Origin: Desulfomonilia bacterium
Lineage (GTDB): Bacteria; Desulfobacterota; Desulfomonilia; UBA1062
Direction: 5' to 3'
DNA: 64,000 nucleotides
Assembly (NCBI GenBank): GCA_050014195.1
Contig: JBEKDT010000001.1
Coordinates: 288,001 to 352,000 of the forward strand
Part shown: piece by piece, positions 11,199 through 45,742 of the stretch
Numbering within the stretch: position 1 is the stretch's first letter
How the letters are laid out: every line of letters begins with the position of its first letter
Position numbers and translations under genes: made by a program
The notes under the pieces: generated by a model
Told to the model about the DNA's origin: nothing
The model's input: the letters and a program-made list of their open reading frames with translations, nothing else
The model's database searches: none

Positions 11199-11600
11199 CT
11201 AAGGTATTACTTGAAATCCAGCCAGCTCAAAGTGCTTATCGAAAGTAAACACTCTTTTTATCTTATATTCTTTCATCAAAACAAAGGATATGCAATCAGT
11301 ATAGCTTACCATCTGATCTGAGTATCTTTCGAAATATCGTAATGCTTCAAGCTCATGTGATTTATCGGGTCTCAAGATGGTAAAGGCATCGGATGAAAAG
11401 ATTGACTTTGCTCTCTGGGCAGCGAATTGATAACTAGCCCTTCTCCCTAAGAGGGTGAAAGTCTCATCTAAAACAAAATTGCTGGTGAAGAGCTTATCTT
11501 TATTCTTTTCCAGAGCCTTCCAGGAAGATAGAGCTTCAGCATGATAATCGTCTTTGGCAATATATCTGGCTATCAATGCTCCCGTATCAATATAGATCAT
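11199..11600 (-). CDS. vapC: PIN-domain toxin VapC
   Basis: IYIDTGAL, VLDETF, SYTDCISF, FTFDKHF acidic tetrad. Confidence 0.92.
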   Translation of the reverse strand: MIYIDTGALIARYIAKDDYHAEALSSWKALEKNKDKLFTSNFVLDETFTLLGRRASYQFAAQRAKSIFSSDAFTILRPDKSHELEALRYFERYSDQMVSYTDCISFVLMKEYKIKRVFTFDKHFELAGFQVIP

Positions 11601-25817: not shown

Positions 25818-26892
25818 TAACAGGATAATTATAGCATCAGCTGGCTCTGGTAAAACAACGTTTTTGATAAAAGAAGCACTGTCTCTACCAGACAGAAAAA
25901 TCTTAATACTCACATATACCAATAACAATATTAATGAGATCAGAAACAAGTTCTATAAGATATATGGTGGCATTCCTAAACATGTTGATGTGATGACATG
26001 GTTTTCCTTTCTATTGCATGAGTGCGCAAGACCATATCAGCGTTCAGTTTATTCAAGTGATAGGGTGAAGACAATCTATTATCCAAAAGGTCGTTCAGCC
26101 CTTTATGTGCCCTACAACGAGACCGAAAGATACTATTTCAAGAATGGTGATGAGATATATTCTGATAAAATTGCACGTTTTATAATCGATTGCGAAAACA
26201 ACTCAAAGGGTCTCGTGACAAAGAGGCTGGCAGATATTTATAATGAGATTTATATTGATGAATTTCAGGACTTATCCGGTTGGGATTTAGATCTATTGGA
26301 AATCTTATTACAGGTCGGAATTCGCATGGTAATAGTGGGAGATCCTAGACAATGCACCTACACAACAAATAATTCTGCCAGGAATTGCCAATGTTGCGGT
26401 ATGGGGATGCTGGATTTGATATGTCAATGGGAAGCAAACAACCTATGTTGTATTGAAAAACTCGCAAGAAGTTATAGATGTAACCAACAGATATGTGATT
26501 TTGCCGACTTGCTGTGGCCTGACATGGAGAAAACGGTTTCTCATAACCACAAGACCACTGATCATGATGGTATATTCATTGTGTCGGAAGATTACATACA
26601 CGAATACGTTAAAACCTTTTTCCCAAAGGTTCTCAGATACAATAAAACAGCTAACACCTATGGCTATGGTGCACAGAATTTCGGGGCGGTTAAAGGCTTG
26701 GAATTTGAAAGAGTTCTGATTATTCCACATGGTCCGATGAAAAAATATCTCCATACAGGGAATTTGAATGATGTCAGAAAATCTTTAGAACTGTTCTATG
26801 TGGCTATTACAAGGGCAAAACAGAGTGTTGCTTTCCTGTATGATGAGAAATGTGGGTGCGGATGTATTCATTGGAAGCCCAAACTCAACTGA
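25804..26892 (+). CDS. gajB: Gabija GajB (short UvrD-like helicase)
   Basis: ASAGSGKT, IDEFQD, GDPRQ, SYRC, KGLEF, YVAITRA; overlaps gajA. Confidence 0.88.
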   Translation: MQSSDNRIIIASAGSGKTTFLIKEALSLPDRKILILTYTNNNINEIRNKFYKIYGGIPKHVDVMTWFSFLLHECARPYQRSVYSSDRVKTIYYPKGRSALYVPYNETERYYFKNGDEIYSDKIARFIIDCENNSKGLVTKRLADIYNEIYIDEFQDLSGWDLDLLEILLQVGIRMVIVGDPRQCTYTTNNSARNCQCCGMGMLDLICQWEANNLCCIEKLARSYRCNQQICDFADLLWPDMEKTVSHNHKTTDHDGIFIVSEDYIHEYVKTFFPKVLRYNKTANTYGYGAQNFGAVKGLEFERVLIIPHGPMKKYLHTGNLNDVRKSLELFYVAITRAKQSVAFLYDEKCGCGCIHWKPKLN

Positions 26893-28013: not shown

Positions 28014-29273
28014 TTAAGCCTTTACTACCGGGATATCTGTCCATGATGTTGTGAATTGGGGAGATCGCCTTGTCTGCCTCATCCACCATGGCCGAGCGAA
28101 GCCGGAGGAGGCATGGATGAGAGTGCCTCTGCCCCATCGTCTGTTTACATCATCCACGGTTTGCATGAGTTTTAGCTCTCGTTCCCCTTCACGACTGGTG
28201 TGGAAAAGGTTCATTTGTACCTGTCCTCTTTGACATATTCCAGAGAGCATTACTCCGGCCTTCCTATATGCCGGACCTCTCCTGTATACACGTTCAAGAA
28301 GGGCCTTGGCATACCTTATGAGATCAGGGGTGTACGAGGTGGCAACAGGAATTGTAGTGGAGCAGAAATGAGTCCTTGGATGCCCATCATTGAATGGAAA
28401 CTCGATGAGCATCACTTGGATGATAGATGCGGCAGAATTCTGTTCTCTCAGCTTCTCCGATACTCTCGATGTGTAAGCAGCAACCGCCTCTTTGAGCTCG
28501 TCCAGGGTGTAGACCTTACGTCCGAAGGATCTGGAGCACATGATGGACTTTTTGGGTTGCTCTCCTTCATCAAGGGGTATGCAGGACGTACCTCTAAGCT
28601 CCATAACCGTGCGCAAGCCCACGACCGTCATGTGCTTTCTCACCCAGGAATCAGATGCATTCCTCAAGTCCAACGCCGTCAAGATCCCGTGTCGCCTGAG
28701 GAGCTTGGTATACTGCCAACCAACCCCCCATACATCTCCCACATCAATGTCGGCGAGGGTTTCTATGTGGTCTGTGATATCGAATACTCCTTGATATTCA
28801 GGCAGCTTCTTCACTAGCTTTGCAGCAGCCTTAGCAAGTGTTTTGGAGGGAGCTATCCCGATGGACACAGGAATGCCGACCCATCTTTTTACGGTCTTCC
28901 TGATAATTCTTCCATACTCAGTGAGGTTCTCAGGAATGCCGGTGAGATCTAGAAAGGCCTCATCTATTGAATAGACCTCCATCTCGGGAGTAAAGGTAGC
29001 AAGTGTCCCCATCACACGGGCAGACAGATCGCCATATAGCGGGAAGTTAGATGAAAAGACGTGCACCTTGTTTTTTGCTATGAGGGTTTGACACTGATGC
29101 AGAGGCTCTCCCATCTTGATGCCCAAGGCCTTAGCTTCGTTTGATCTGGCTATGATGCACCCATCATTGTTTGAAAGTACGACGACCGGTTTACCTTCAA
29201 TAGAAGGGTTAAAAATACGTTCGCAGGATGCATAAAAGTTGTTGCAGTCTACCAGAGCAAAGATCTGTTCCAT
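28014..29273 (-). CDS. umuC: Y-family polymerase UmuC
   Basis: LVDCNNFYASCE, LSNNDGC, YSIDEAF, SRSFG, RSPQFTTSW. Confidence 0.96.
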   Translation of the reverse strand: MEQIFALVDCNNFYASCERIFNPSIEGKPVVVLSNNDGCIIARSNEAKALGIKMGEPLHQCQTLIAKNKVHVFSSNFPLYGDLSARVMGTLATFTPEMEVYSIDEAFLDLTGIPENLTEYGRIIRKTVKRWVGIPVSIGIAPSKTLAKAAAKLVKKLPEYQGVFDITDHIETLADIDVGDVWGVGWQYTKLLRRHGILTALDLRNASDSWVRKHMTVVGLRTVMELRGTSCIPLDEGEQPKKSIMCSRSFGRKVYTLDELKEAVAAYTSRVSEKLREQNSAASIIQVMLIEFPFNDGHPRTHFCSTTIPVATSYTPDLIRYAKALLERVYRRGPAYRKAGVMLSGICQRGQVQMNLFHTSREGERELKLMQTVDDVNRRWGRGTLIHASSGFARPWWMRQTRRSPQFTTSWTDIPVVKA

Positions 29274-29276
29274 GGA

Positions 29277-29729
29277 TCACACCTTGTGGATTACGTAAGA
29301 AACGACTCCCCACACTTCCACCTGCATGCCCTCCGTTATCTCGATAGGCTTAAAATGAGGATTTTCAGCCAGGAGGAAACATCTGCCATCGATGTGGTGA
29401 TACTTTTTCACTGTAAAGTCGCCATTGACCATGGCAATCACTACATTACCCGATTTTGGTTCCAAAGCTCTGTCTACGATGAGGATATCACCGGTATGAA
29501 TACCCGCCCCGGTCATCGAATCTCCTGCAACTCGGACAAAGAATGTTGCAGACGGATGTTTGATGAGAAAATCGTTGAGGTCGAGATTCTTTTCAATGCT
29601 GTCTTCTGCCGGTGAGGGGAATCCGGCAGATATGCCTACAGAGAAGAGAGGTATCTTGAGGCTAGTCTTGCTTTCGAAGCCCCAGATTTCTGTAACACGC
29701 AATTCGTTTTTTTCTGAGTTTTTTATCAC
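29277..29729 (-). CDS. umuD: UmuD S24 autopeptidase
   Basis: SAGFPSPA cleavage site, GDSM, TVKK, WGVV. Confidence 0.95.
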   Translation of the reverse strand: MIKNSEKNELRVTEIWGFESKTSLKIPLFSVGISAGFPSPAEDSIEKNLDLNDFLIKHPSATFFVRVAGDSMTGAGIHTGDILIVDRALEPKSGNVVIAMVNGDFTVKKYHHIDGRCFLLAENPHFKPIEITEGMQVEVWGVVSYVIHKV

Positions 29730-29869
29730 AAGCAGGAGATACTAACACCACGGGAGTTGACTGTAAAGGAGAGAGGGGAAGAGATCTGGATAACCGTGCA
29801 AAGCTCCTGTGCATGGACAACTTATCATTATTTGATGTACAACCCAGTATATCAGAAGAGGAACGAATA

Positions 29870-30553
29870 ATGTGTGGCCGGTTCATCCAGATCATTGACC
29901 CAGAGCTTATCGAAGTAGACTTTTCAGAGTTGGAAGTGGACGAGGAGGCTCTGAGTCGCTTTATCCCGAGCTATAATGTCACGCCCACAAAAGATATCTT
30001 GACCGTGCTGAATACTCCCACACCAAGGCTCACCCTCACACATTGGGGACTTATACCCTACTGGTCAAAAGATAAGAACATAGGGAGCAGGATGATAAAC
30101 GCCAGGTCCGAAACGCTTATAGACAAACCTTCTTTCAAAGAGCCTCTCAAGAGAAACAGGTGTATCATCCCGGCAATTGGGTTTTATGAATGGGATACTG
30201 CGAATAAGACAAGAACGCCCTACCTCATCAGGCTAAAAAGTGGAAAGCCCCTCGCCTTTGCTGGGCTTTGGGATAGGTGGCGTGACAAGGAAACCGGAAA
30301 TACGATCATCTCAAGCACGATCATCACCACGGAAGCAAATTCACTGATCGCACAGATCCATGGCAGGATGCCTGCTATCCTATCTCCTGGTTGTTTCAAG
30401 TCATGGCTGAGTTCACAGCGAGAAGAGGAAGTTGCCTTGCTGAATTGCCTTAAACCTTATCCTGCCGAGGAGATGGAGGCATATGAAGTCTCGAAACTTG
30501 TGAACGATCCTCGGAATGATTCTCCTGAAATCATTGATCACGTTTTGAGATGA
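29870..30553 (+). CDS. SRAP/HMCES (YedK-like) abasic-site protein
   Basis: MCGRF start (catalytic Cys2), WGLIP, INARSET, GFYEW, HGRMP. Confidence 0.95.
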   Translation: MCGRFIQIIDPELIEVDFSELEVDEEALSRFIPSYNVTPTKDILTVLNTPTPRLTLTHWGLIPYWSKDKNIGSRMINARSETLIDKPSFKEPLKRNRCIIPAIGFYEWDTANKTRTPYLIRLKSGKPLAFAGLWDRWRDKETGNTIISSTIITTEANSLIAQIHGRMPAILSPGCFKSWLSSQREEEVALLNCLKPYPAEEMEAYEVSKLVNDPRNDSPEIIDHVLR

Positions 30554-30569: not shown

Positions 30570-33488
30570 TTACTTCTTTTCTAGTCCCAACCCCTGATTT
30601 TTTTCAATTTTTACTGATGGAGCCTTTGCAGAATGCATCTTCTGTCCGTCATATGAAACATACCGGTGCATCTGCATCTGATCGTATTGATTATCGTAGG
30701 GCACCATATAGCGAACCCCCTTCGATTCAATCACTGCATATTTATTGCTGCCGAGTTCCTCGATCTTTGTATAATAGCCTTCCACAGCCCTTTCTCTTGG
30801 GAAGTCTACCCTAAGCCCTCTATCCTTCATTCGCTGGCAGTAATTGAATTCTTCCGGGGTAAGCTTCCGGTCGAATGCCGATATGTCTTTTCCTTCCTGT
30901 TTCTCTTGAGAAACTTGCTGCTGCATTTCTTTCTCGAGAGTTCTGCTCTTCTTTGCATATCCCATTTCCTTCCCATCATAGGCTACATAGTGGTGCATCT
31001 GCATTTGATCATATTGCTTCTCGTAGGGTATCAGGTAACGAATTCCCTTAGTCGGATTGGCGTGCATATCGATAACAGCATAACTCTTACCTCCGACTTC
31101 TTCCACTCTCTCAAAATATCCGGATACAGATTTATCTTTGGGGAATTCAACTTGAATGCCTCTTCCCTTCATTTGTTTGACATACTGTTCCTGGTCTCTT
31201 TGCTGTTGCCATTCCTGAGCCTGGATTCGTCTCTCTTCATGAGTCAGAACTTTCTCAGCTTCGATGACTCTGTTATCTACCTCGATGCCTCTCGGAATCC
31301 CATAATCCACAACCAGACTCTTTGGCCGTTCTCTGCTCATGACTCTCTGCAGATCTTCAAAATTCCTGAACTCATCCTTGCCGTAATACATGGTCACATT
31401 CTCTCTATGCCTGCTCATAGCAACGTACGCTGTATGCTTATCAAAATGACGTGAACCGAGAACAAATGTATGGTCGAGGGTTGAGCCTTGGGTCTTATGC
31501 ACGGTGGCTGCATAGCCGTGGTCGAAGTCTTTATACATGCTGGTATCGATAGCGACCCGGTCGCCTTTATCAAGCTTGACGGATATGGCTCCCCGGTTGA
31601 TGCTTTCCACCGTACCGAGTGAACCATTTCTTATGCCTAAGGAATGCTCGTTCCTGAGGAAGATAATCCGGTCTCCTGTGCAGAAATTCCTTTCTCCTTT
31701 CTCGGTCATGAAGGTGTGCTCGTAGCCTCGGAGCTCTCCGTGCATTTTTCTGTGTTCTCTTGCCCCCTGGTTCAGTTCATTTACATCCCTATTCGTGTAA
31801 GCCATCATGAGGCTGGTTTCGTGTTTCTGTTTTGAGAGTTGTTGTTGATCCGCCCACTCTTTCAGCATCTTATCCTTGGCATCCTGCCTGGTCTGGAATT
31901 CATGGATATGACCATGGTTGTGGTACATTTCCAGGGCTTTCTCTGATTGTTCTTTGTTGCCGGAGAATTCTACGGTTGCTTGTTTCTGCCAATCGATATG
32001 TTGTCTTCTCACTTCTGCAAGTTCCACGTATCCGGTTCTCTGGATGATACCTCTGAATGATCCTCCTGCTTCGATTGACTGAAGCTGTTCGTTGTCTCCC
32101 ACCAGGATCACTTTTGCTCCTGCTTCATGGGCGTGCTCTAAGATCTTGTGCATCTGTCTGGTGCCCACCATACCTGCTTCATCTATCACCAGGATCTGGT
32201 CTTTGCTGAGTAGATTTCTCTCATTTTCCCAGTCCTCCAGTTGTCTGAAGATGGTTGTGCTTTCGATCCCGCTTTCATTCTGCAGACCTTCTGCTGCTAT
32301 GCCCGAAAGGGCAAGGCCTCTTACCCGATATCCTCCTGCTTCATACGCCTCTTTTACAGCACCCAGTGTGTAGCTTTTCCCTGTTCCCGCTCGACCGATC
32401 ATCACGGAGATGTCGCCACTCGCAGAGATGTTTCTGAAGGCTTTTTCCTGCTCCTCGCTCATGGTGTAGTTCTTCGCTGTCTGGTTGATGATATCCCGTT
32501 CCAGGACGTGTTCATTTGAAGATATCATGACTCTCGCATTATCGAGCATGGTCTTCTCATTCATCATCATGGTACGGGTGGAGAACAGGTCTTCTCCCTT
32601 CTCGTTCTTCCCTATCTTGATGAGCTCGGGGCTGTTCTCAAGGGCGGATAAAACCCGGTTGAACTGATCTGCATCAGCACTGTGCCGGAATGCAAAATCC
32701 ATGATGTCTTCCCGCTTGAACACAGCATCGTAGTGTCCCACGTGCTTGAGGGCCTTCCCGGGATCTTGGATAATACGGTCTCCGTTTTCACGGCATATCC
32801 TCTGGTACTCTTCTAACCGATCAAGTCCTCGGGTTTCTTGCAAGTGGAGGTAGCCTTTGGGTAGGTATTTTGCAGCTATCCCTATCTTCGTTGTTGGTTC
32901 AAGATCAATGCCTCTTTCTTCAAAGCTCCTATGGTCAACCTGGATATCGTGACCTGACTCCAGCAATTTCCGGTTCTGGATATTCGCCCACTCTTCCCTC
33001 CAGATAAGGATATTTGCTCTATCGTTCCAGGATCTTTCCTTATTGCCGAATCCGTTTGGTGTTACTTCTCTTGTGGTAAGTAAGATATGAACATGCGGGT
33101 TCTTATCGCTCTTGTGGATACAGATATCAGCTATCATTCCTCTATCTACGAATTGTGCTTGTACATATTCTCTGACCAGCACAATCTGTTGTTCGAGGTT
33201 AAGCTCCTTGGGTAGCGCTAATTCAACTTCCCGTGCGAGCTGGGCGTCCTTCCTCTTCTCTGCTCTTTCTACTTCGTTCCAGAGGGTTTGCCGGTCTCTC
33301 ATTCTCTCCGGGGCATTTTCCGGGAGGAGGATCTCCGCATGGGCAAGGTCTTTCTTCTTCGAGTAATCAAAGGTAAGGTCCTGACGCTCATCATAGAGTT
33401 TTTCACGGCTTCGATATGCAGCAGCAGAAACTGCGCTTCTTCCTGAAGACCTGCTTACTATCTTAGTTGTGGAATGATAACACGCCAT
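30570..33488 (-). CDS. traA: MOBQ relaxase-helicase TraA (Ti-type)
   Basis: AAAYRS, LWNEVERAEKRKDAQLARE, H..NPHVH, VDHRS; RecD-like GRAGTGKS, IDEAGMV, HGYAATVHKTQG. Confidence 0.95.
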   Translation of the reverse strand: MACYHSTTKIVSRSSGRSAVSAAAYRSREKLYDERQDLTFDYSKKKDLAHAEILLPENAPERMRDRQTLWNEVERAEKRKDAQLAREVELALPKELNLEQQIVLVREYVQAQFVDRGMIADICIHKSDKNPHVHILLTTREVTPNGFGNKERSWNDRANILIWREEWANIQNRKLLESGHDIQVDHRSFEERGIDLEPTTKIGIAAKYLPKGYLHLQETRGLDRLEEYQRICRENGDRIIQDPGKALKHVGHYDAVFKREDIMDFAFRHSADADQFNRVLSALENSPELIKIGKNEKGEDLFSTRTMMMNEKTMLDNARVMISSNEHVLERDIINQTAKNYTMSEEQEKAFRNISASGDISVMIGRAGTGKSYTLGAVKEAYEAGGYRVRGLALSGIAAEGLQNESGIESTTIFRQLEDWENERNLLSKDQILVIDEAGMVGTRQMHKILEHAHEAGAKVILVGDNEQLQSIEAGGSFRGIIQRTGYVELAEVRRQHIDWQKQATVEFSGNKEQSEKALEMYHNHGHIHEFQTRQDAKDKMLKEWADQQQLSKQKHETSLMMAYTNRDVNELNQGAREHRKMHGELRGYEHTFMTEKGERNFCTGDRIIFLRNEHSLGIRNGSLGTVESINRGAISVKLDKGDRVAIDTSMYKDFDHGYAATVHKTQGSTLDHTFVLGSRHFDKHTAYVAMSRHRENVTMYYGKDEFRNFEDLQRVMSRERPKSLVVDYGIPRGIEVDNRVIEAEKVLTHEERRIQAQEWQQQRDQEQYVKQMKGRGIQVEFPKDKSVSGYFERVEEVGGKSYAVIDMHANPTKGIRYLIPYEKQYDQMQMHHYVAYDGKEMGYAKKSRTLEKEMQQQVSQEKQEGKDISAFDRKLTPEEFNYCQRMKDRGLRVDFPRERAVEGYYTKIEELGSNKYAVIESKGVRYMVPYDNQYDQMQMHRYVSYDGQKMHSAKAPSVKIEKNQGLGLEKK

Positions 33489-33530
33489 TCTTATTTCCGA
33501 TTAATCCTTATCCGGTTCTGCTTTCCGCAC

Positions 33531-33560
33531 ACGACGCTTGCGTTGTATTAGTGCGCCTTT
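33531..33560 (+). other. MOBQ-type oriT; predicted nic between 33555 and 33556 on the + strand
   Basis: Short inverted repeat ACGACGC-TT-GCGTTGT followed by ATTAGTGCG^CCTTT, matching the RSF1010/Ti core TAARTGCG^CCCT; lies between divergent traA and accessory gene. Confidence 0.8.
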
Positions 33561-33740
33561 CCTTCGTAAAGTATTTAGCCCTTCGGTCTGCTCTCGCATG
33601 GGGGTTGCCTCGTACGTTACGATAAATCCCGATACGCTATCGGGCTCATGAAAAACCTTGAAGTGCTCTCGCTTGACATCTAACCTCACATAATTTAAAA
33701 CATAACAACATTTGTATTTATATTACTTTGAGAGGGCAGA

Positions 33741-33995
33741 ATGCAACCGAAAAAACCAGATTCACTCACAAAACTTCTGCAGAAAAAACAGAAGATCGAA
33801 CAACAGATTTCAAACGCCAAGACCCGCCTAAAGAAAGTGGAACGGGCCGCAGACACGCGGAAGAAGATCCTCATCGGCGCTTACTTCCTTGAAGTCAAAT
33901 ATAAAGGCAAAGAGGAAGAGCTCACCAAGATCATGGATGGCTTCCTTATCCGTGATAATGACCGGGCTCTCTTCGGCCTTCCGCCAAAGGGGTAA
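33741..33995 (+). CDS. Relaxosome accessory protein (TraC/TraD/MobS-like)
   Basis: Coiled coil then RAADTRKKILIGA and DRALFGL; divergent from traA; TTGACA at 33673 upstream. Confidence 0.8.
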   Translation: MQPKKPDSLTKLLQKKQKIEQQISNAKTRLKKVERAADTRKKILIGAYFLEVKYKGKEEELTKIMDGFLIRDNDRALFGLPPKG

Positions 33996-34013
33996 TGATT
34001 CTCTAAAAGTTAG

Positions 34014-34529
34014 CTAGTCGAATAAAACAGCCCTTCTCGGCCTTATTCTTCCGGCTCCGGGTATTTCCCTTTTCTCGGCCTTTCTTTTATGGGTTGGGAC
34101 AGTCGAAATTTGCATACCTGCTGCGTATATTTCGTGCTTCCTGACGACGTCGAGAAGACCGTCGAGGTAGTCTTCGATGTCTTGTCCCTCTTCTGTTGAT
34201 TCATAGCGATACGTTTCTATCATATCGCCAAGGCAATCGGCTATCGCTGCCTTGATATCTAGAATGGCCAATGGTTTTAGATCACTGCTCACTTTGCTTA
34301 GGAAGTCATTGAGCTTCTGGGAAGGAATCTCATAATTGATTATCTTTTCATAGAGGTCACCGATACCGGAAACATATTCATAGGGTTCATCCTCCTTTGA
34401 GATGGAAAGGATACCCTTATATTTTTCTTCAATCTGACGGTAAAACTCGGAGAAAGGGTCCCGTGAACTTTTTGATCTGCTTGTGCAACTCTCATCGTTC
34501 TGTTCCGTCTTCTGAATGATAGCTCCCAT
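34014..34529 (-). CDS. Hypothetical acidic leading-region protein
   Basis: ATG 34529 with GAGGAG RBS; preceded by repeat copy 1. Confidence 0.7.
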   Translation of the reverse strand: MGAIIQKTEQNDESCTSRSKSSRDPFSEFYRQIEEKYKGILSISKEDEPYEYVSGIGDLYEKIINYEIPSQKLNDFLSKVSSDLKPLAILDIKAAIADCLGDMIETYRYESTEEGQDIEDYLDGLLDVVRKHEIYAAGMQISTVPTHKRKAEKREIPGAGRIRPRRAVLFD

Positions 34530-34563
34530 TGGATAACTCCTCAAACTTAAACTTTCCCAAAAA

Positions 34564-34735
34564 CATTTTTCCTGAACCCCTTCACAAAGCCCTGAGGGGT
34601 TTCAGAAAAATGATTCAAAAGACTGCGGAGCCATCCTTAGTGGGTATTGAGATCCTTGAGCCTCTGTAACGCTGCAAGCGGAATGACAATGGTTTTCCCA
34701 TTGGCGTGAGGCTTATCGAAGCGAGTGAAAGGGGC
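34564..34735 (-). repeat. Leading-region double-hairpin repeat, copy 1
   Basis: + strand: hairpin B 34564-34612, AAGACTGCGGAGCC, then TGCAAGCGGAATGACAA ... TTGGCGTGAGGCTTATC. Confidence 0.88.
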
Positions 34736-34821
34736 GATGATTTAAAGAGATCAAGACCACAAAGTTGTCCCTCATAAAGCTGCCTTAAAAAATAACAGGA
34801 GATAAGCTTCCAAGACGATCC

Positions 34822-34850
34822 GGCCTCCGGGTCCATAAGACCCGGAGGCC
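34822..34850. terminator. Strong hairpin after the DUF4942-like gene
   Basis: GGCCTCCGGGTC-cataa-GACCCGGAGGCC, 12-bp perfect stem; weak U-tract. Confidence 0.6.
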
Positions 34851-34859
34851 ACTTTGATT

Positions 34860-35636
34860 TTATACTGACTGCAGCTTGTCACATCCGGCAATCTTGTTAA
34901 TCTCACAAACTAAATCCATGCGTTTGAACCGGATATGCATGTTTCCATTTTTATGCCATGTGCATTCAAAGTATTCTGTTTCTGTTTGCCATTTCTTTTC
35001 CCTCATGGCGTCTCTGATTCTTGTGAGAAGATTACCCGGGTACTTTGGCATGCCCGCACCATCCAGCAGATGAAATATCTTGTCCATGTCCCATAAGCTG
35101 TCTTCCCTGTAGCCGGAGAGGGTTGTCCAATACTTGTTATGGTCAATCATTCCCGGGATGATGGCTTTTTCTTTCAAGGCAGTGCGCTGGTTGGTCTTGA
35201 GGCCGGTCCTCTGCGGCCTCAGGAAGTTGAACACGTCTTCAATCATCTGCTTTTTAAACTCATCCCCACGGGTGATAAAGGAAAACATCAGCTTGTGTAT
35301 ATTTTCCTCCGTAAATTCGGGTACGTTCCCATCAGAAAGCTGCTTCTCGATACTCGAAATTTCTCTGGCCGGAAGAAGGTTCTTGATTCGCGAAAAGAGG
35401 ACTTTCCAGCAGTTAATCCGTACACCCTTCCTTGAGTCCTCTTTGTCCCTTTCAGGGTCGTATAAATCCATATCATAACGCCCTATCTTGCATGGGAAGA
35501 ACCGTCCCCCTATGATCTTCTCATAGAGTCCTTTTATTCTGACGAGCCTTGCATAAGCCTCATCCAGATCGGCCAATATTTGCTGATAGGCTTTAACGAG
35601 ATCACTTGTTTTCATTTCAGTCAAAAGATCGTTCAT
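34860..35636 (-). CDS. DUF4942-like domain protein (stand-alone)
   Basis: VPEFTEENI...VFNFL...KTN...DMDKIFHLLDG...EYFECTWHKNGNMHIRFKRMDLV; ATG 35636 with GGGAGG RBS. Confidence 0.78.
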   Translation of the reverse strand: MNDLLTEMKTSDLVKAYQQILADLDEAYARLVRIKGLYEKIIGGRFFPCKIGRYDMDLYDPERDKEDSRKGVRINCWKVLFSRIKNLLPAREISSIEKQLSDGNVPEFTEENIHKLMFSFITRGDEFKKQMIEDVFNFLRPQRTGLKTNQRTALKEKAIIPGMIDHNKYWTTLSGYREDSLWDMDKIFHLLDGAGMPKYPGNLLTRIRDAMREKKWQTETEYFECTWHKNGNMHIRFKRMDLVCEINKIAGCDKLQSV

Positions 35637-35692
35637 GGATATTCCTCCCTTTGAATTATTGGCCTCCAGGGAGTTCCACCCCAGAAAACCAA

Positions 35693-35858
35693 TTTTTTCC
35701 ATGACCCCTTTCACAAAACCCTTAAGGGGTTAGGAAAAAAGGATGATAAGTTCGCGCAGCCACCTTGAATAATCCTGGGCATCCTGGATGCCTCTGGAGC
35801 ACTGCAAGCGGCATGACAACTCAGTTGGCAGGACGCTTTGAAAGCAAGAGAAAGAGGC
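35693..35858 (-). repeat. Leading-region double-hairpin repeat, copy 2
   Basis: Hairpin B 35693-35740; TGCAAGCGGCATGACAA (35803-35819) ... TTGGCAGGACGCTTTGA (35825-35841); outer GCCTCT/AGAGGC pair. Confidence 0.88.
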
Positions 35859-35897
35859 TAGGCACTATTTTCCAGGATTAAAGCTAAAAGCATAAAA

Positions 35898-35923
35898 CGG
35901 ACGCGGCGCATGCGCTGCGTCCG
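35898..35923 (-). terminator. Intrinsic terminator of ardC
   Basis: CGGACGCGGCGC-AT-GCGCTGCGTCCG followed by TTTT on the minus strand. Confidence 0.7.
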
Positions 35924-35935
35924 GGAGCAGAGGAA

Positions 35936-36817
35936 TTACCCCTGCCCTGTTTCATCTTCGTGGTCATCGTCCTCTTGCCTGCCCGTGATGTAGTTGACTG
36001 CTTTCTGGGCCTGGGCCGCCGCCAGAACAACAAGCTTTGAATCCTTGCTGATAGAGTCCCTCCACCCTTGGATATATGCTGCTGAGTTCTCAATGGTGGC
36101 ATGGGCAATGCCGGAGATCCCGCACAAGTAAGCTGCACCCATCTCGGCAACAAGCTCTTCCCGGGCGTAACTCTTCGAGCCGAAAGCCGCCGGTGTGGTC
36201 AAGGTTTCCCGGTTGAGTCGTGTTTCTGAGCCTGTGCTGTGGGTTGTCTCATGAAATAGTACACTAAAATATTTCTCCTGGTTCACAAAAGCTGACTTGT
36301 TCGGCATCTTCACCACGTCCTCGATTGGGTTATAGCAGGCCTTTGTGAATCCGTGCTTTATCTCAGGCCTTCCCTTATATCCTTCTATAATGGCCTCTGC
36401 CTCGACTATGGGGTCTGAGTGAGACTCTTCCGGCTGGTCGGGATAGGTGATCCCTTCGCACTGCAGGACATTGAATACCCGGTAATACTTCAGGAAGGGT
36501 ATGTTCTTCTTTTCCATCTCGCTCGTTGCCTCGTTGAGCTCCTCTACTTCCTTAAAGTTCCAGAAAACCACTATAGAGCTTTTCTCACCCTTCTTGATGG
36601 TCCCTCCAAGGGTCTTGGCCTGGTTGAAGGTGAGCCAGTAGGGAGAGGCATAGCTTGAAGCAAGGAGCAACCATATATTGATGCCCCGGTAAAGCTTGCT
36701 CGTTACCAGGTTACGCGGAAATAGGATCTTGCTGGTCCATGGTTTTTTCCAGGGAATGATACCCTTGTCCAAGTGCGATAAAATCTGCTCGGTCACGATC
36801 TCGAATACGTTAGCCAT
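35936..36817 (-). CDS. ardC: Antirestriction ssDNA-binding protein ArdC
   Basis: IPWKKPW, YRGIN, WLTFNQA, YRVFNV.Q, HETTHSTG, YAREELVAE, SAAYIQGW; start after AGGAGG. Confidence 0.93.
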   Translation of the reverse strand: MANVFEIVTEQILSHLDKGIIPWKKPWTSKILFPRNLVTSKLYRGINIWLLLASSYASPYWLTFNQAKTLGGTIKKGEKSSIVVFWNFKEVEELNEATSEMEKKNIPFLKYYRVFNVLQCEGITYPDQPEESHSDPIVEAEAIIEGYKGRPEIKHGFTKACYNPIEDVVKMPNKSAFVNQEKYFSVLFHETTHSTGSETRLNRETLTTPAAFGSKSYAREELVAEMGAAYLCGISGIAHATIENSAAYIQGWRDSISKDSKLVVLAAAQAQKAVNYITGRQEDDDHEDETGQG

Positions 36818-36843
36818 TTGTCTTTCCCTCCTTCTAAAAATCA

Positions 36844-37000
36844 ATTTTTTTCAACCCGTTCACTCCTGACTCATGGGTTGAGAAAAAATCGGAGAGATAA
36901 AGACTGCGGAGCCTCCTTTCATAAAACCTCTGAAGCGCTGCAAGCAGCATGACAACGAGTTCTATGTTGGCAGGATGCTTAGAAGGCGAGCGGAAGTGGC
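36844..37000 (-). repeat. Leading-region double-hairpin repeat, copy 3
   Basis: Hairpin B 36844-36889; AAGACTGCGGAGCC; TGCAAGCAGCATGACAA (36939-36955) ... TTGGCAGGATGCTTAGA (36967-36983). Confidence 0.88.
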
Positions 37001-37518
37001 GAAGGTTCTGAACATTTCAGAATTGTGTATAAAATCTGTTCACCATTAAGCCTAGGTTGCGTTCAAAGAACCGGGCAAAGGGATGGCTTTTTCGATCTTA
37101 ATATATAGAATCCACATGACTTATAGAGACCTATGATCTTTCCTGATTAAGTCGATTCTTAGATCTTCCAGAGATAGATTCATTCCCGACTGATACAATC
37201 AGGTTGCCTTATCTCAGAGTAGCTTATCTGGTTGATTATTGAAGGATGTTGAAATTCAGGATCTATTGTACTTGAGAAGCTCCTAATCATCGTATAGAAT
37301 TCAATTTAAGAAAATGCTATTATATTAATTAATGGTACACTGTATCAATTGACATCGGGCTTCTAAATCTTACTCACAATATGAAAAGAGGAGACCTGAC
37401 TTTTGTTCCCATTCACCGCTAGAGATATTCTTTTTAAAACTCTGAATCAACCTAAGAATTTCGATCATCCGGCTTTTGGAAGTGATGCTAAAACCTTCAT
37501 GGGGTTAAGATAGAAAAA

Positions 37519-38916
37519 ATGCTGACGACATTCGAGATCTATCGAAGAGCTGAGAAGTGCTTCGAGAAATGTTTACCACCTGAGTGGATTCCTACTAAAC
37601 CCAGGGATGACATCGGAGTTGATTATTGGGTGCAAATAACACGACGCGGAAGCCCAACCCCTTTAAGCTTTTTTGTCCAGGTCAAAGGCACAACAAATAT
37701 AAAGGAGACAGGGAGTTCTCTAGTTTACTCATTGTCGACGAAGAAGCTCAAGCAGTACATGAAGACGCCACTACCAGTTCTGTTTGTGCTTTGCGACATT
37801 AGAGAAGAAGAGGATGCCGATATTGCCTACTTTTGTTGGGTGCGCGAAGCCATAAGGGACGAGGTTCTTGCTGGGAGAGTGAACGAGGCAAGCTGGGCTT
37901 CCCAAGAAACGGTGTCCTTAGCCATACCTATTAAGCAGAGGTTATCTCTTGACATTTTTTTAGAAGAGATACAACCAGTCATCGATACTTTTGCAATTAG
38001 ACATGTCCAACAAGAAAATGAACATTTGGCTGTAGTAGATAAATCGAAGAAAGCCATTACATCCTTGCTGTCTTCTGGAAGGCTTAAAGAATTTGGATTG
38101 AATACCGAAGATCCAAAGACCGTAACAGCCTTAGAGTTTATGTCTGAGGGGGGCCGGTTACAGGATCAAGCCCGCCACATGGAGGCGATCTACTATTTTA
38201 AGGCGGCCGAAAAGCTTCTGCCCCATGATGAAACATTCCTTGCTGAGAGCTTCAGTTGGGAAGCATTAGGCAATTTACAAGAAGCGGTCAGTGCTTGCGA
38301 AAGAGGATTGGTTCATCATCCTGGACACCCTTATCTTTTATCACAATTAGGTGTCTATTATTTTAGAAGTGGTCAAATACATGAGGCTTTCGATCTTCAT
38401 GTACGTGCGGCACATGCAAAACCGGAGGATGGCGGTCTTTGGGCGAATGCAGGAGCAACTGCTGAGTTAATCGCTTCAACTCTTCATGGGGAAGATGCAC
38501 AAGCCGCTCTGGAGGCATCTGCCCGGTTCTTTGAGAAAGCACATCATTGCAATCCGCAGAGTGATTTTATTTTGAATGACTTTGGGCTAGTTTGCTCAAG
38601 ATTGTATCGCTTCCCTAAGGCCGTAGCTTTATTTGAAAAAGCTATAGCCATTAACCCCAAGAACATAACTGCACGCAGAAGGCTGGCCAGGGCTTATCTC
38701 TCATTGAAGCAGTATGATGAGGCTCATGCTCAAGTCCTTACAATATATGCAATGGGCGCACGAGATAAGGAGACCGAGAATATGGAAGCTTTGATAGAAG
38801 ACAACAGAGCAGGGCCTAGAAAAGACAGTTATGCCCAAATGATGAATAGTATGCGGAGATTCGAATTCGGTGCTACGAAGAAGGGACCAAAACGGAAGAA
38901 AAAGCGGAGACGTTGA
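37519..38916 (+). CDS. DUF4365-type PD-(D/E)xK nuclease fused to TPR repeats
   Basis: DDIGVD...FFVQVKGT N-terminus; several TPR units (e.g. AVALFEKAIAINPKN). Confidence 0.8.
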   Translation: MLTTFEIYRRAEKCFEKCLPPEWIPTKPRDDIGVDYWVQITRRGSPTPLSFFVQVKGTTNIKETGSSLVYSLSTKKLKQYMKTPLPVLFVLCDIREEEDADIAYFCWVREAIRDEVLAGRVNEASWASQETVSLAIPIKQRLSLDIFLEEIQPVIDTFAIRHVQQENEHLAVVDKSKKAITSLLSSGRLKEFGLNTEDPKTVTALEFMSEGGRLQDQARHMEAIYYFKAAEKLLPHDETFLAESFSWEALGNLQEAVSACERGLVHHPGHPYLLSQLGVYYFRSGQIHEAFDLHVRAAHAKPEDGGLWANAGATAELIASTLHGEDAQAALEASARFFEKAHHCNPQSDFILNDFGLVCSRLYRFPKAVALFEKAIAINPKNITARRRLARAYLSLKQYDEAHAQVLTIYAMGARDKETENMEALIEDNRAGPRKDSYAQMMNSMRRFEFGATKKGPKRKKKRRR

Positions 38917-39212
38917 TATTGGGTTTTAAATGCGCATTCTCGTTTTCGAGTTGTGCCACGGATCTTGAACAGGATACGGTACTGAAAAGAAGGTTTAAGA
39001 TCGTGGAGACAAAAGATCCCTATCCAAATCGCTTTTTCAAAGGCTTCTGAAGTAATATATACTTTTAAGTCCTTATGACTGGCGTATAGATAGTGGTACG
39101 CTAGTTATACACTCTCTTCCTGGCCTTGGAAGTTTAAAGAACATAATAAAAAATCTCTCTCCTGAAGATCGATTCTCATCTAACCAAGACTGAAAAATAA
39201 CAGAAAATAAAA

Positions 39213-39404
39213 GCCCCCTCCGCTCGCTCAGAAAGCAGCACGCCAACATTGTGACCATGTTGTCATGCTGCTTGCAACGCTACGGGTGTCTCCTATGGTC
39301 ACTATCCGTGACCACCTTCTTATATGGTGAGCCTTTCAGGCTTGCTTTTCTCCGGTCGTTCCTCCCTTCCCCTTCAGTCGTTTGTGAAAGGGGCAAGGGA
39401 GGAA
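39213..39404 (+). repeat. Double-hairpin repeat, copy 4, inverted, upstream of xis-int
   Basis: AGAAAGCAGCACGCCAA (39230-39246) ... TTGTCATGCTGCTTGCA (39260-39276); hairpin B 39359-39404. Confidence 0.85.
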
Positions 39405-39444
39405 AAGTTGGTTTTTATGTTTAAAGACTAAGGAGAGAAAGACA

Positions 39445-39693
39445 TTGGCTTCCTCTAACTCATCGGTATGGCTCACGGCAAAGCAGGCATCCGAATATGC
39501 GGGTGGTATTAACGAGAAATACATCCGAGAGTTATGGGCACGTGGCCTGATGCGATACTCAAAGCCCGATCTTGGACAGATGGTCACTAAGAGAGAATGG
39601 ATAGACGAATACTTAGAGAGCAGGGAAGTAAAGGGCGGAGTTGTACTAGACAATAAGATTGACAACATCTTGAAGGACGTTTTTAATGCGTAA
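39445..39693 (+). CDS. Excisionase-like winged HTH protein
   Basis: WLTAKQASEY...REWIDEYL; AAGGAG RBS, TTG start; overlaps the integrase. Confidence 0.78.
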   Translation: MASSNSSVWLTAKQASEYAGGINEKYIRELWARGLMRYSKPDLGQMVTKREWIDEYLESREVKGGVVLDNKIDNILKDVFNA

Positions 39694-40921
39694 AATGGGC
39701 GTAAGTGTTGTTGAACATCCAAAAGGATCTGGTGAATTATATTTATTGGTCTGCCATCAGTACAAGAAAAAGTACATCCATGTTGGCAAGAACACTAAAC
39801 CAAACCGTGTTATCGCAAACCAGAAGAAAGAGCTAATCAATCAGAAGATCAAAGAGCAGGGACATAAGGCGCTCAACAGACTCTTTGAAATCAAATCACA
39901 GGCTCCTACCCTTAAACAGTATCTAAATGGTTTTGATGATAATCCCGGCTGGCTTGCAAAGAACAAGAAGCGACTCAAATACAGCACCTATAAGGGATAT
40001 GAGAATCTTATCAATCAGAGGTTACTCCCGAGATATGGAGACAAGCCCCTGGATCAATTCGATAAGGAAGAGTTTGAAAACTATCTCTTTGAGCTCTCCG
40101 AGTTCAAGCCTAAGAGTTTAAAATATCATACACTCGCGAATATTAAGAACTGCTTATCGGGCATACTGGAATCCGCAGTACCCAAGTATATCAAATCGAA
40201 TCCTATTCATGGACTGATAATTCCCAAAGATAACCCAGATGAGAACAAGGATGAGATGAGCCCCTTCACCTGGGAAGATAGGTCGACATTTGAATCTAAA
40301 GTTAAAGAGCATAGGCCAAGATATTATGCACTTGTGGTAATGGGATTTAGATCCGGCCTCCGCATTGGTGAGATCATTGGCTTGAGGGTTTCAGATATTG
40401 ATTTTGTCCACAACTATATCAGCGTGAGGAATAACATTACCAGGGGAAGAGGCACCACTCCAAAAAGTGAAGCCGGAAGGCGTAAGGTTCGTTTGACAAA
40501 TGAATTGAAAACTATTCTCCAGAAACAGATCACTGCCGTTAAGGAAGAGGCTCTCAGCAAGGGTTGGAAGAAAGTGCCTGAGTGCGTATTTATAGGGGAA
40601 ACAGGGAACAGGATAAACTACGGCAATTTTCTTGATCGAGTATGGAATTACTGCATGGAGAAATCAAAGCTCTCTCGCAGGACCCCTCACGATATGCGCC
40701 ACACGTATGCAACCTTGAGACTCAGTCTTGGACATCCCATTCATGAGGTTTCAAAAGAGCTTGGGCATAGTTCCCCCAATATCACTTACAAGATTTACTA
40801 TCATTGGATACCCCAGATGAGCACAAGTAATATAGACGATTTAGATAGAAAACCTACTAGAGAATTACTAGAGAATAAACCTGAAAATATGGTAGAGAAT
40901 GTCTCTAGTAGCAATAGTTAA
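39686..40921 (+). CDS. Tyrosine integrase
   Basis: SGLRIGE, TPKS, HDMRHTYA, LGHSS, final Y in KIYYH. Confidence 0.95.
   Translation: MRKMGVSVVEHPKGSGELYLLVCHQYKKKYIHVGKNTKPNRVIANQKKELINQKIKEQGHKALNRLFEIKSQAPTLKQYLNGFDDNPGWLAKNKKRLKYSTYKGYENLINQRLLPRYGDKPLDQFDKEEFENYLFELSEFKPKSLKYHTLANIKNCLSGILESAVPKYIKSNPIHGLIIPKDNPDENKDEMSPFTWEDRSTFESKVKEHRPRYYALVVMGFRSGLRIGEIIGLRVSDIDFVHNYISVRNNITRGRGTTPKSEAGRRKVRLTNELKTILQKQITAVKEEALSKGWKKVPECVFIGETGNRINYGNFLDRVWNYCMEKSKLSRRTPHDMRHTYATLRLSLGHPIHEVSKELGHSSPNITYKIYYHWIPQMSTSNIDDLDRKPTRELLENKPENMVENVSSSNS
40855..40911. repeat. Probable integrase arm-type sites
   Basis: TACTAGAGAAT twice in tandem (40855, 40866), GGTAGAGAAT (40891) and inverted CTCTAGTAG (40903), 44-100 bp from att. 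Confidence 0.65.
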
Positions 40922-44191: not shown

Positions 44192-45742
44192 TCAATGCCG
44201 GTTTGTCGCTCTCGGTTTTATTGTCTTGAAGCGGTTTGTGTCGATATTGTATTTAGCGACCTTGTACTGCATGATGCGCTTGGTGGTTCCGAGGAGTCGA
44301 GCTGCTTTGCTCTGGTTGCCCCTGGCGGCTTTCATCGCATCCACGATTATGAAGCGCTCATAGGATGCTACGAGGCTTTCCAGTTTCCTCTGCTGCTTTT
44401 CCTCCGTGGTTACCATCTGCTTCTGCATCGAGAGGGGCAGATGTATGCCGTCGATAGTGTCACCTCTTGTGAGCAGAACGGCCCGTTCGATGCAATTCTC
44501 AAGCTCGCGCACGTTGCCAGGCCAATGGTATGCAAGCAGGAGGTCAATGGCTGGTGTGGAGATGTAATGAATGGATTTTTTGAGCTGCTTGGAGTAATTC
44601 TCCACAAAGTAATTTGCCAGCAGGATGATATCTCCACCGCGCTCCCGCAATGGAGGCATGTAAATAGGGAACACATTGAGCCTGTAGTATAAGTCCGCTC
44701 TGAACATGCCGGCGGCCACATCCTGTTCCAGGTCGCGGTTGGTGGCGGCAATGATACGCACATTGACCTTTACAAAAGTGTTCGATCCCAGAGGTTGAAA
44801 ATTACGCTGCTCGATCACCTTCAGAAGCTTAGCTTGAGCAAGCGGGGAGAGCTCCCCTATTTCATCGAGGAAGAGGGTCCCGCCGTTTGCCTCCTCGAAC
44901 CTTCCTTTCTTCTTCTTGTCAGCGCCGGTAAAAGCCCCTTTCTCATGCCCGAACAGCACACTTTCTATAAGGGTATCCGGAATGGCGGCGCAGTTCACCT
45001 CAATAAACGGGTTTTGAACCCTGGGACTATTCATATGGATGGCCCTTGCAACAAGCTCTTTCCCAGTCCCTGTCTCCCCATGGATAAGAACAGTAGTGCC
45101 GGACCCGGAAACCTGAAAGATGAGGTCGGAGACGTCTTTCATAGTCTTCGAGTTGCCGACAAGTTCCCTTGAAGGCTGCCTGCTTTTTTTAAGAATGTTT
45201 TTCAACATGATGTTCTCTTCCTCAAGAACTCTCATGTTTACGGCCTTGGCAATCAGTTCAGCTACCTCACAAAGAAGCTTCAGCTCATATTCCTGGTTGT
45301 CCGCCTCCATAGCCGCCTTATCAGCCGAGAGGACACCCACCACCTTGTCGTCATGGATGACGGGAACACAGAAAAACACAAGCTCCGACCGGTTCAACGA
45401 CCGCCTGGATCCGGTCCTGTCGAGGAAGTGCTTCTCCTCATCGAGGTTGGTAATGACTAAAGGTTTTCCGGTCTGTGCCACTTGGCCGGTGATTCCTTCT
45501 CCAGGTTTGTAGATAATCTCTCTGCTGTCTATATCCACGCCGTGGGCAACATCAAGGATGGCAATTCCACTGTCCCGGTCGAGTATGGAGATCATGGCCC
45601 TGTTCATCATGGTGCGGGTACAGAGTTCATCGAGACCTTGTTCAAGCTGATCCCTGAGGTCGAGTGGCGACGCCAGGATCTTTGCAAGATCATGGAGAAC
45701 ATCGAGATCATTGTAGGTAAAAGGCTCCATACCATATCTCAA
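44192..45742 (-). CDS. NifA-like sigma54 enhancer-binding protein (GAF-AAA+-HTH)
   Basis: GEGITG GAF, GETGTGKE, GAFTGA, LFLDEI, WPGNVREL, Fis-type HTH. Confidence 0.95.
   Translation of the reverse strand: MRYGMEPFTYNDLDVLHDLAKILASPLDLRDQLEQGLDELCTRTMMNRAMISILDRDSGIAILDVAHGVDIDSREIIYKPGEGITGQVAQTGKPLVITNLDEEKHFLDRTGSRRSLNRSELVFFCVPVIHDDKVVGVLSADKAAMEADNQEYELKLLCEVAELIAKAVNMRVLEEENIMLKNILKKSRQPSRELVGNSKTMKDVSDLIFQVSGSGTTVLIHGETGTGKELVARAIHMNSPRVQNPFIEVNCAAIPDTLIESVLFGHEKGAFTGADKKKKGRFEEANGGTLFLDEIGELSPLAQAKLLKVIEQRNFQPLGSNTFVKVNVRIIAATNRDLEQDVAAGMFRADLYYRLNVFPIYMPPLRERGGDIILLANYFVENYSKQLKKSIHYISTPAIDLLLAYHWPGNVRELENCIERAVLLTRGDTIDGIHLPLSMQKQMVTTEEKQQRKLESLVASYERFIIVDAMKAARGNQSKAARLLGTTKRIMQYKVAKYNIDTNRFKTIKPRATNRH

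Follow-up and report, generated by a model that had tools for sequence, protein, structure and literature searches.

The DNA analysed here (the window, a 64,000-nucleotide stretch covering positions 288,001 to 352,000 of contig JBEKDT010000001.1, assembly GCA_050014195.1, from a Desulfomonilia bacterium) carries an integrative conjugative element. Next to its origin of transfer (oriT) and before its integrase genes we found hairpin-containing repeats, which are best explained as expression cassettes of a MOBQ/MPF-T integrative conjugative element family, and whose first hairpin may be a promoter that works on single-stranded DNA (ssDNA). The element includes a VirB-type type IV secretion system (T4SS, 12-23 kb), a coupling protein gene (20623-22404) and, on the minus strand, a relaxase gene (30570-33488) whose 972-aa product combines a MobA/MobL domain (Pfam PF03389, 7.2e-74) with an AAA_30/TraI-type helicase (PF13604, 8e-58). 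Beyond a small gene that we take to be TraD-like (33741-33995) lie three minus-strand leading genes: orf172 (34014-34529), the first one with a cassette and without family match, a DUF4942 gene (34860-35636; PF13708, 8.7e-35) and ardC (35936-36817), which encodes an ArdC N-terminal domain (PF08401, 2.3e-32) and a zincin peptidase (PF18818, 9.7e-34). On the plus strand, the element also has a DUF4365-TPR gene, and a small open reading frame (ORF) of 82 aa (39445-39693) and a tyrosine integrase gene (39686-40921; PF00589, 7.1e-21), which together occupy 39445-40921.

In the direction of the gene, orf172, DUF4942 and ardC are each preceded by a unit of about 230 nt comprising a hairpin A, a spacer, a hairpin B, a T-run and a ribosome-binding site (RBS), and the same unit precedes the integrase pair on the plus strand. 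In cassette 1, upstream of orf172, hairpin A lies at 34660-34735 (minus strand), with its proximal arm TTGTCATTCCGCTTGCA being the reverse complement of 34673-34689 and its partner arm TTGGCGTGAGGCTT located at 34701-34714 and followed by a 6-nt bulge; model R1 hits 34645-34746 with 82.7 bits. Hairpin B of this cassette (34561-34615, minus strand; delimited by inverted repeat, folds and covariation) is followed by TGTTTTTGG, the RBS and the start codon at 34529. In cassette 2, upstream of DUF4942, hairpin A is found at 35790-35858 (minus strand; proximal arm, reverse complement of 35803-35819; partner arm TTGGCAGGACGCTT at 35825-35838; R1 hit 35775-35869, 81.6 bits) and hairpin B, delimited in the same way, at 35693-35740 (minus strand). 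In cassette 3, upstream of ardC, the corresponding positions are 36927-37000 (minus strand; proximal arm, reverse complement of 36939-36955; partner arm TTGGCAGGATGCTT at 36967-36980; R1 hit 36911-37011, 90.9 bits) and, for hairpin B, 36844-36889 (minus strand; folds and covariation). Cassette 4, upstream of the integrase pair, has hairpin A at 39213-39289 (plus strand; R1 hit 39202-39304, 91.6 bits), with the same invariant features and the most nearly perfect stem of all four in the window, and hairpin B at 39359-39405 (plus strand; folds and covariation). A preliminary description, made from the sequence alone, had reported the same imperfect hairpin before the three leading genes, and all six arms that it quoted are in place. 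The hairpin is longer than it described, about 70-77 nt, and its count of four copies is correct, with the reservation that it had left unremarked that the fourth (39202-39304) sits on the plus strand in the opposite orientation.

Allowing up to 3 mismatches, we counted 4 occurrences of an 18-mer core of the repeat in the window, against 0.04 expected, and 0 of 100 shuffles gave 4. Across the genome that the window belongs to (G000), a degenerate 17-mer matched 12 times and its reversed control not once. An nhmmer profile found 15 full copies in this genome, all with E 1e-40 or better, plus one fragment; the 15 copies fall within five elements related to one another (A to E), located on contigs C1, C7, C8 and C11. 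A 64-nt cassette fragment (C1:121872-121935, nhmmer E 2.8e-8) is located at the T4SS end of sister element A. A covariance model was derived from the copies and searched in related genomes. It matched in 7 of 151 of them, all of one family (6/51 in the family, 0/70 in the sister family), whereas a sample of 150 further genomes of the phylum gave no match; the total is 31 distinct copies in 7 genomes. These counts of 31 exclude one reverse-strand self-match (L154:1505-1605:+) and 40-nt opposite-strand partial matches, and they retain L144 (genome G007), a degenerate copy without hairpin B that is the single exception in the strand-energy and arm-motif counts below. Among 80 metagenomic ArdC-encoding loci, one carries the element, and it encodes the closest ArdC relative (74% identity); the upstream regions of the other ardC homologues hold unrelated structures. 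Three of those metagenome contigs (L175, L177 and L182) have a different conserved hairpin, CCCTTGCCAG...CTGGCAAGGG, then a second G+C stem, about 70-110 nt before their ardC homologues, so that other lineages may have leading-region hairpin families of their own. A wider distribution was also sought with a degenerate pattern, which was too loose (at least 119 stretches; among those listed nhmmer recognised no genuine copy, its two weak hits having E 0.003 and 0.009), and a match in genome G038 (E 0.008) was excluded from the counts, being a perfect palindrome with TGTCA on both arms and not the element.

The arms of hairpin A contain 2-5 mismatches and enclose loops of 3-13 nt. Past the ..CTT/AAG.. 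pairs, the partner arm has an unpaired A+T-rich bulge whose sequence varies and whose length is constant (5 nt in 28/31 copies, 6 nt in 2 and 4 nt in 1). Beyond the bulge GC pairs with GC (31/31 and 30/31 in the two columns), after which come two or three short helices split by 3x3 internal loops, and a GCCCC/GGGGC helix closes the structure. The spacer towards hairpin B is GGCTCCGCAGTC-like in leading-gene copies, while that of the integrase copy forms two additional small hairpins. Hairpin B is conserved, lies about 40-60 nt beyond hairpin A and has a pyrimidine-rich 5' arm, a loop of 13-17 nt ending in GTGAA and a purine-rich 3' arm, then the T-run, the RBS and the start codon. Its stem covaries, the T-run begins 2-5 nt past the extended stem, and a terminator scan gave no flag. 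By folding energy hairpin B is strand-neutral (9 against 14 of 23 copies); a wobble-pair asymmetry seen in a MAFFT alignment was discarded as unreliable, since the T/A runs are misaligned and the energies show no bias. Hairpin B may be part of an mRNA leader, or it may serve to displace RNA from a single-stranded template.

The position of the cassettes relative to oriT was then considered. The oriT core lies at 33531-33565 on the plus strand, 60 nt upstream of the relaxase start, and consists of an inverted repeat (ACGACGC/GCGTTGT) followed by the nic-like motif TTAGTGCGCCTT. The same arrangement stands upstream of all 5 relaxase genes of the genome: the five oriT regions (G000 C1:95886, C1:321548, C7:94941, C8:159336 and C11:85859) have in common the nic-like motif GTGCGCCTT, and the inverted repeats before it differ in sequence yet remain complementary, that is, the relaxase recognition hairpins covary. 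In RSF1010 the strand carrying the motif is the one that is nicked, and the DNA 3' of the nick enters the recipient first. The inverted repeat and TTAGTGCGCCTT match the MOBQ oriT consensus, reported as NWACCNNTAAGTGCGCCCTYNN (PMC3832669). By this match and the RSF1010 precedent, the plus strand is the transferred strand (T-strand), transferred toward higher coordinates, and the leading region runs from 33.56 kb upward. The T-strand is thus the template for the three minus-strand leading genes, as had been proposed earlier from the orientation of oriT, and the three leading cassettes (34.6-37.0 kb) all lie within 3.5 kb of nic. The T-strand is likewise the template in 11/11 leading-type copies of G000 and in 6/6 of a second genome (G002), one of the latter six lying on the far side of the relaxase gene, which is not a leading position.

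We then asked whether the pairing of hairpin A is maintained. First, in the 15 genome copies 81.6% of the cells are paired against 74.7% in shuffles, and both sides have changed in 11 of 26 pairs. Second, the covariation score is 0.232 against 0.110 in shuffles, a value reached by 0 of 500 of them, and slid controls stay at or below 0.111; RNAalifold finds double changes in 8 of 18 pairs. Third, the four bases between the two conserved motifs of the proximal arm vary while their complementarity to the partner arm is kept (GCTG/CAGC, GAGG/CCTC, GATG/CATC), and even in the most distant copy (GGCC/GGCC) they remain complementary. Both compensatory changes quoted in the preliminary description are real, with many more besides. 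Together, these data support that hairpin A is under selection.

Hairpin A is also asymmetric between the two strands. As Watson-Crick pairs cost the same on either strand, a strand difference can only come from mismatches, bulges and loops. One position is mismatched in 15/15 copies of this genome and in 31/31 distinct copies. There the T of the proximal TGTCA is opposed on the partner arm by C in 30 copies (C.T) and by T in the remaining one (T.T), so that the mismatch predicted there at -24 (sigma54 numbering) is a constant of the family; a second position is variable, with C.A in 22 copies and T-A in 9. Out of 775 pair cells, 622 are Watson-Crick, 132 become G.T or purine.purine on the template strand and only 21 do so on the sense strand. 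With DNA parameters, the fold of the template strand is more stable in 30/31 copies, by a mean of 4.76 kcal/mol, and the bias is present in all subfamilies, the most divergent copy (L145) also showing it; given that copies share ancestry, these are not 30 independent trials. These observations support that hairpin A is written for the template strand.

This bias counts against a sense-RNA leader. In a reading of the cassette as an RNA element, it would be a 5' leader holding hairpins A and B and transcribed from a promoter further upstream, or an antisense RNA. What makes a leader conceivable is that a strong sigma70-like site, TTGATA-18-TATAAT (37348-37319, minus strand, 11 of 12 matches), points toward the ardC cassette from 320 nt upstream of it, and that hairpin B, which is strand-neutral, looks like an attenuator together with its T-run. 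This site is one of two divergent sigma70-like sites at 37272-37348, the other (TTGAGA-17-TAGAAT, plus strand) preceding the DUF4365-TPR gene, and it could allow transcription through cassette 3 in the duplex state. With RNA parameters, however, the sense hairpin A is less stable than its antisense complement in the same 30 of 31 copies, L144 being the exception. Moreover, the conserved block starts at the base of hairpin A and the sequence further upstream is not conserved, while cassettes 1 and 2 stand behind G+C-rich palindromes at the ends of the genes before them (34822-34850, a terminator-like hit, and 35898-35923, respectively). Each cassette would therefore need its own promoter, and if it has one, that promoter should lie within hairpin A. 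A match to an Rfam motif of other function had been named as a possible refutation: the only Rfam hit in the window is a tRNA, and a search of 34400-39500 at E up to 1 returned four sub-threshold matches, three of them to miRNA hairpin models, that is generic hairpins. No conserved promoter for an antisense RNA was seen either, and we regard an RNA element as highly improbable.

A sigma70 promoter within the cassettes was searched for by consensus scan, which found no site in the three leading cassettes (11 sites in 6.4 kb against 8.7 +/- 2.9 expected), in line with the earlier remark that no sigma70 -10 box lies at the right spacing; the sole site in the gene direction near a cassette overlaps the start codon of orf172. 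By eye, TTGGCR on the non-template-like arm (4-5 of 6 matches to a -35 box) or TTGTCA can be picked out, with no TAnnnT or other -10 box at 16-18 nt on either arm, and the former begins with C or A instead of T in 5 of 30 copies. The A+T-rich bulge sometimes reads TATAAA, a sequence that is not conserved and is separated from the -35-like hexamer by only 7 nt. Reading TTGNCA as a sigma70 -35 box would also misplace the open zone of the hairpin. The consensus sequences of RpoH, ECF and FliA sigma factors did not fit by eye.

Sigma54 promoters have the consensus YTGGCACG-N4-TTGCW. The proximal arm of hairpin A reads TGTCA-N6-TTGC in 31/31 copies, with CTTGCA in 28 and a spacing that is unchanged in any copy, and the partner arm, on the other strand, reads TGGC in 30/31, preceded by T (25 copies), C (4) or A (1). 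This preceding base fits the YTGGCAC of sigma54 and breaks the TTG of a sigma70 -35 box. In sigma54 numbering, a continuous stem extends from -26 to -12, a loose zone from -11 to about -4 and the closing helix from about -3 to +3. In duplex DNA neither arm holds both elements: the proximal arm has GT at -24 in all 31 copies, so that GG and GC are not found on one duplex, and on the partner arm the bulge shifts the GC out of place in 30/31, the outlier L145 alone reading an undisplaced TTGC. A GG at -24 and a GC at -12 at fixed spacing come together only in the folded template strand. The split -24/-12 pattern that the preliminary description had put forward is thereby kept in every homologue found, with exact spacing and mismatch, and it survived what had been offered as its refutation test. 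One detail did not hold: the bubble was said to begin at -13, whereas the -12 GC is paired and the mismatched zone starts at -11. The predicted starts at 34662, 35792 and 36928 follow from the -12 C by sigma54 spacing, as arithmetic only. The resemblance to sigma54 promoters is specific, and on sequence grounds the geometry is coherent with a promoter split over two arms.

That the host uses sigma54, as had been stated, is borne out by one rpoN gene and 25 genes for sigma54 activators (bacterial enhancer-binding proteins, bEBPs), and by the canonical pattern TGGCAY-N5-TTGCW, which occurs at 28 sites where its reversed control occurs at 5. PF04552 was found in 5/5 searched genomes that carry the element, which is not discriminating as they belong to one family. 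The canonical sites of the host end in TTGCT in 24/28 cases; the cassettes end in TTGCA. In an unrelated element on a metagenome contig (L224), a canonical duplex sigma54-type site, TTGGCACGGGGCTTGCT, stands about 80 nt upstream of an ardC homologue. As the chance of an equally good match somewhere in the 65 upstream regions scanned is roughly 0.17 by our estimate, this does no more than hint at a possible wiring of ardC to sigma54.

The same hairpin is also an inverted repeat in duplex DNA, and the cassettes might then be ordinary duplex promoters whose dyad is the operator of an element-encoded repressor; with the repressor absent just after transfer, the leading genes and int would fire and later be shut off. 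Such control would explain why one type of cassette serves leading genes and integrase in opposite orientations, and it has a precedent in Reg576 of plasmid p576, for which four repressor-controlled establishment promoters are reported (PMC6294495), ArdK/KorA-type control being alike. On the other hand, the cassettes show no recognisable sigma70 promoter, and the proximal sigma54 look-alike has a T in place of the near-invariant G at -24. The spacer between the motifs covaries while its sequence changes, a pairing that duplex recognition does not need, and the bias of 132 against 21 mismatches has no meaning in duplex DNA. Furthermore, none of the 35 window ORFs scanned is a candidate repressor, though several small ORFs have no family. 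We therefore consider an operator unlikely.

The integrase-type copies, which face the other way, bear on the choice of strand. They retain all the invariants of hairpin A and its template-strand bias. In the four of G000, each is followed by an integrase gene, or by a helix-turn-helix (HTH) gene and an integrase gene; outside G000 the class is defined by cassette sequence, not all downstream genes having been scanned. In three places of G002 (C8:3559-3810, C4:157272-157630 and C24:19456-19944) an integrase-type and a leading-type cassette stand back to back, 50-160 bp apart, and in one element of that genome only about 0.4 kb, devoid of leading genes, separates the integrase-type cassette from the relaxase gene. 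The property common to the family is a hairpin on the gene's own template strand, whichever strand is transferred.

Phage N4 virion RNA polymerase recognises hairpin promoters, and a comparable explanation for both orientations is that the supercoiled duplex extrudes a cruciform in which the template-strand hairpin is active irrespective of transfer. This would cover the template-strand bias in both orientation classes, and the stems of the integrase type are indeed more nearly perfect (-14 to -26 kcal/mol in 9 copies, against -8 to -18 for most of the leading type). The 2-5 mismatches, the 5-nt bulge and the loops of 3-13 nt nevertheless disfavour extrusion, and the orientation of leading-type copies to oriT (17/17) would be left to descent. 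We regard cruciform extrusion as quite improbable for the family as a whole. For the integrase copies, it is one of three candidate readings, the others being firing from the retained strand in donors and a duplex mechanism common to all copies.

A structure acting on ssDNA might also serve as something other than a promoter, either slowing complementary-strand synthesis through the leading region as a roadblock or acting as a priming site for it. A precedent for stalling is the ssp2 stem of F, described in a preprint as stalling complementary-strand synthesis and so lengthening the single-stranded window (10.64898/2026.01.09.698686), and all the elements examined have an integrase-type hairpin where the leading region ends distally. 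But one structure per gene, at a fixed distance before the RBS, is what a promoter needs and not what a roadblock needs. In addition, the border copy is in its less stable form on the T-strand, and in G002 one border copy is so close to the relaxase gene (about 0.4 kb) that priming there would cover almost nothing. A roadblock or priming site is, to our mind, about as improbable as a cruciform.

We favour the reading that hairpin A is a template-strand ssDNA hairpin promoter that drives the three leading genes and is silent as duplex, a reading that we hold to be possible and a little short of evenly balanced. The hairpins A would fold on the T-strand as it enters the recipient, and would drive zygotic expression of orf172, DUF4942 and ardC before the complementary strand is synthesised, as Frpo/ssi do. 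A more specific version, that the promoter is of sigma54 type and exists only in folded ssDNA, where one arm provides the -24 GG and the other the -12 GC, is more tentative and seems to us rather doubtful. Within a hairpin promoter, sigma54 is the best candidate holoenzyme, the alternative being another holoenzyme that uses the pre-opened zone. The partner arm would supply YTGGC on the non-template-like side and the proximal arm the -12 TTGC; the paired stem would end exactly at -12, followed by the loose zone, and the short G+C helix would close at the predicted start. RNA polymerase binding and the sigma factor, like the start sites, are predicted here. Upon conversion to duplex, neither arm would be a complete promoter and the genes would be silenced. 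The integrase-type copies, being built for the complementary strand, might be accommodated by a bolder extension: as the relaxase-helicase unwinds the element from oriT in the donor, the strand left behind would become their active template, and int/xis expression would thereby be coupled to DNA processing. Accumulation of ssDNA in F donors has been reported by Couturier et al. (PMC9849209).

Several points weigh against this reading. First, wherever an integrase-type copy shares its contig with a relaxase match, the T-strand is its sense strand (9/9): 4/4 in G000, 4/4 in G002 (a fifth has no nearby relaxase match) and 1/1 in a third genome (G043), where the relaxase match is about 19 kb away. 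As the T-strand cannot be transcribed into int mRNA in these copies, a mechanism confined to it fails for the family; the earlier claim of a promoter active only on the incoming single strand agrees with the orientation of the three leading genes and does not extend further. Second, sigma54 is reported to bind tightly to promoter DNA opened at -12/-11 (PMC2715252), but for the wild-type protein activators both melt DNA and lift the region I block, and only bypass mutants are described as transcribing a preformed bubble (PMC7057263), in agreement with the caveat already made in the preliminary description. Among the 35 window ORFs scanned (the largest, from 495 to 52480) no activator gene lies within the element; the only one in the window (44192-45742) is beyond its integrase end, and none of the 25 of the genome lies within the elements. 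No conserved upstream activator site was seen, which is compatible with activation from solution. Third, the 5-nt bulge falls between the -24 and -12 elements on the non-template-like arm, and together with the G.A mismatch inside the recognised duplex it would make an unusual sigma54 substrate. Fourth, the copies are related by descent and their counts overstate the independent support, and the confinement of the element to one bacterial family limits comparison to the point that a broad comparative test is impossible.

The closest known systems are the Frpo/ssi stem-loops of F and ColIb-P9, leading-region structures in which intrastrand pairing rebuilds promoter elements that are inactive as double-stranded DNA (PMC9849209, PMC11541004). 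Like Frpo1, Frpo2 and ssp2, the cassettes are non-coding repeats that form long imperfect stem-loops, one per early gene or operon, with the T-strand as template; those of Frpo/ssi serve anti-defence and establishment genes. The leading-region position is shared by the three leading cassettes and not by the fourth copy. Unlike Frpo, which rebuilds canonical sigma70 -35/-10 boxes, the cassettes fit none; their stem is much shorter than that of Frpo (about 75 nt), their motif and geometry are sigma54-like, and some copies form a sister class that lies on the other strand and serves integrase genes. A blastn search (distant settings) of 33400-37100 against 72,556 PLSDB plasmids gave one unrelated hit of 64 nt and no match of F/IncI type, the Frpo sequences themselves not being aligned directly. 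With sigma54 promoters the cassettes share YTGGC...TTGC at the exact -24/-12 spacing, and like the "early melted" -12/-11 heteroduplex of sigma54 they are duplex to -12 and disrupted from -11; they differ in having T for the second G of -24 in the duplex (31/31), with the GG on the other arm, in the mismatch and bulge of the recognised duplex, and in showing no evident enhancer or activator. The Reg576 system of p576 is alike in having several establishment promoters of one regulatory design and transient expression after transfer, but its promoters are described as ordinary duplex ones with operators (PMC6294495), whereas the cassettes show covariation, strand bias and no recognisable duplex promoter. 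The cassette hairpins would be Frpo/ssi-like in their working, yet they lack the sigma70 boxes and the sequence homology, and as duplex they fall outside the sigma54 promoter class. In N4 virion RNA polymerase promoters and in the sso of rolling-circle plasmids a polymerase also recognises a folded single strand, with different polymerases, sizes and sequences and no link to conjugative leading regions.

Other parts of the window deserve mention. At 24210-26892, a gene for an OLD-family ATPase/TOPRIM protein (AAA_15/AAA_21 and OLD-like TOPRIM) is followed by an overlapping gene for a UvrD-like helicase, a Gabija-like defence pair carried within the conjugative element. Genes similar to umuC and umuD (IMS family; 28014-29273 and 29277-29729) and an SRAP peptidase gene (29813-30553) adjoin the relaxase gene, and this block is kept in three sister elements. 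The left part of the window holds a PIN-domain gene and a gene for a large AAA_13 ATPase (11199-11600 and 1095-3719), a possible toxin-antitoxin or defence cargo.

To our knowledge, all ssDNA promoters described so far are of sigma70 type and come from enterobacterial plasmids. Searches for new ones are reported to require -35/-10 boxes (PMC11541004), and would thus miss the cassette family. We found no paper joining Frpo with sigma54 in the literature searched, the candidate Frpo list of PMC11541004 being a place where relatives might figure. A sigma54 version of an ssDNA promoter is undescribed, and plausible, if doubtful on present evidence. If the cassettes are confirmed as ssDNA promoters, integrative elements of a distant lineage would join those known to use the entering strand for zygotic expression, and such expression could be wired to a different holoenzyme. 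A promoter split over two arms would be off in duplex DNA by construction, and it would offer a natural substrate on which to ask whether sigma54 holoenzyme can start without activator help, or with only untargeted help. Finally, the integrase copies that face the other way raise the idea that the strand retained in the donor also bears ssDNA promoters.

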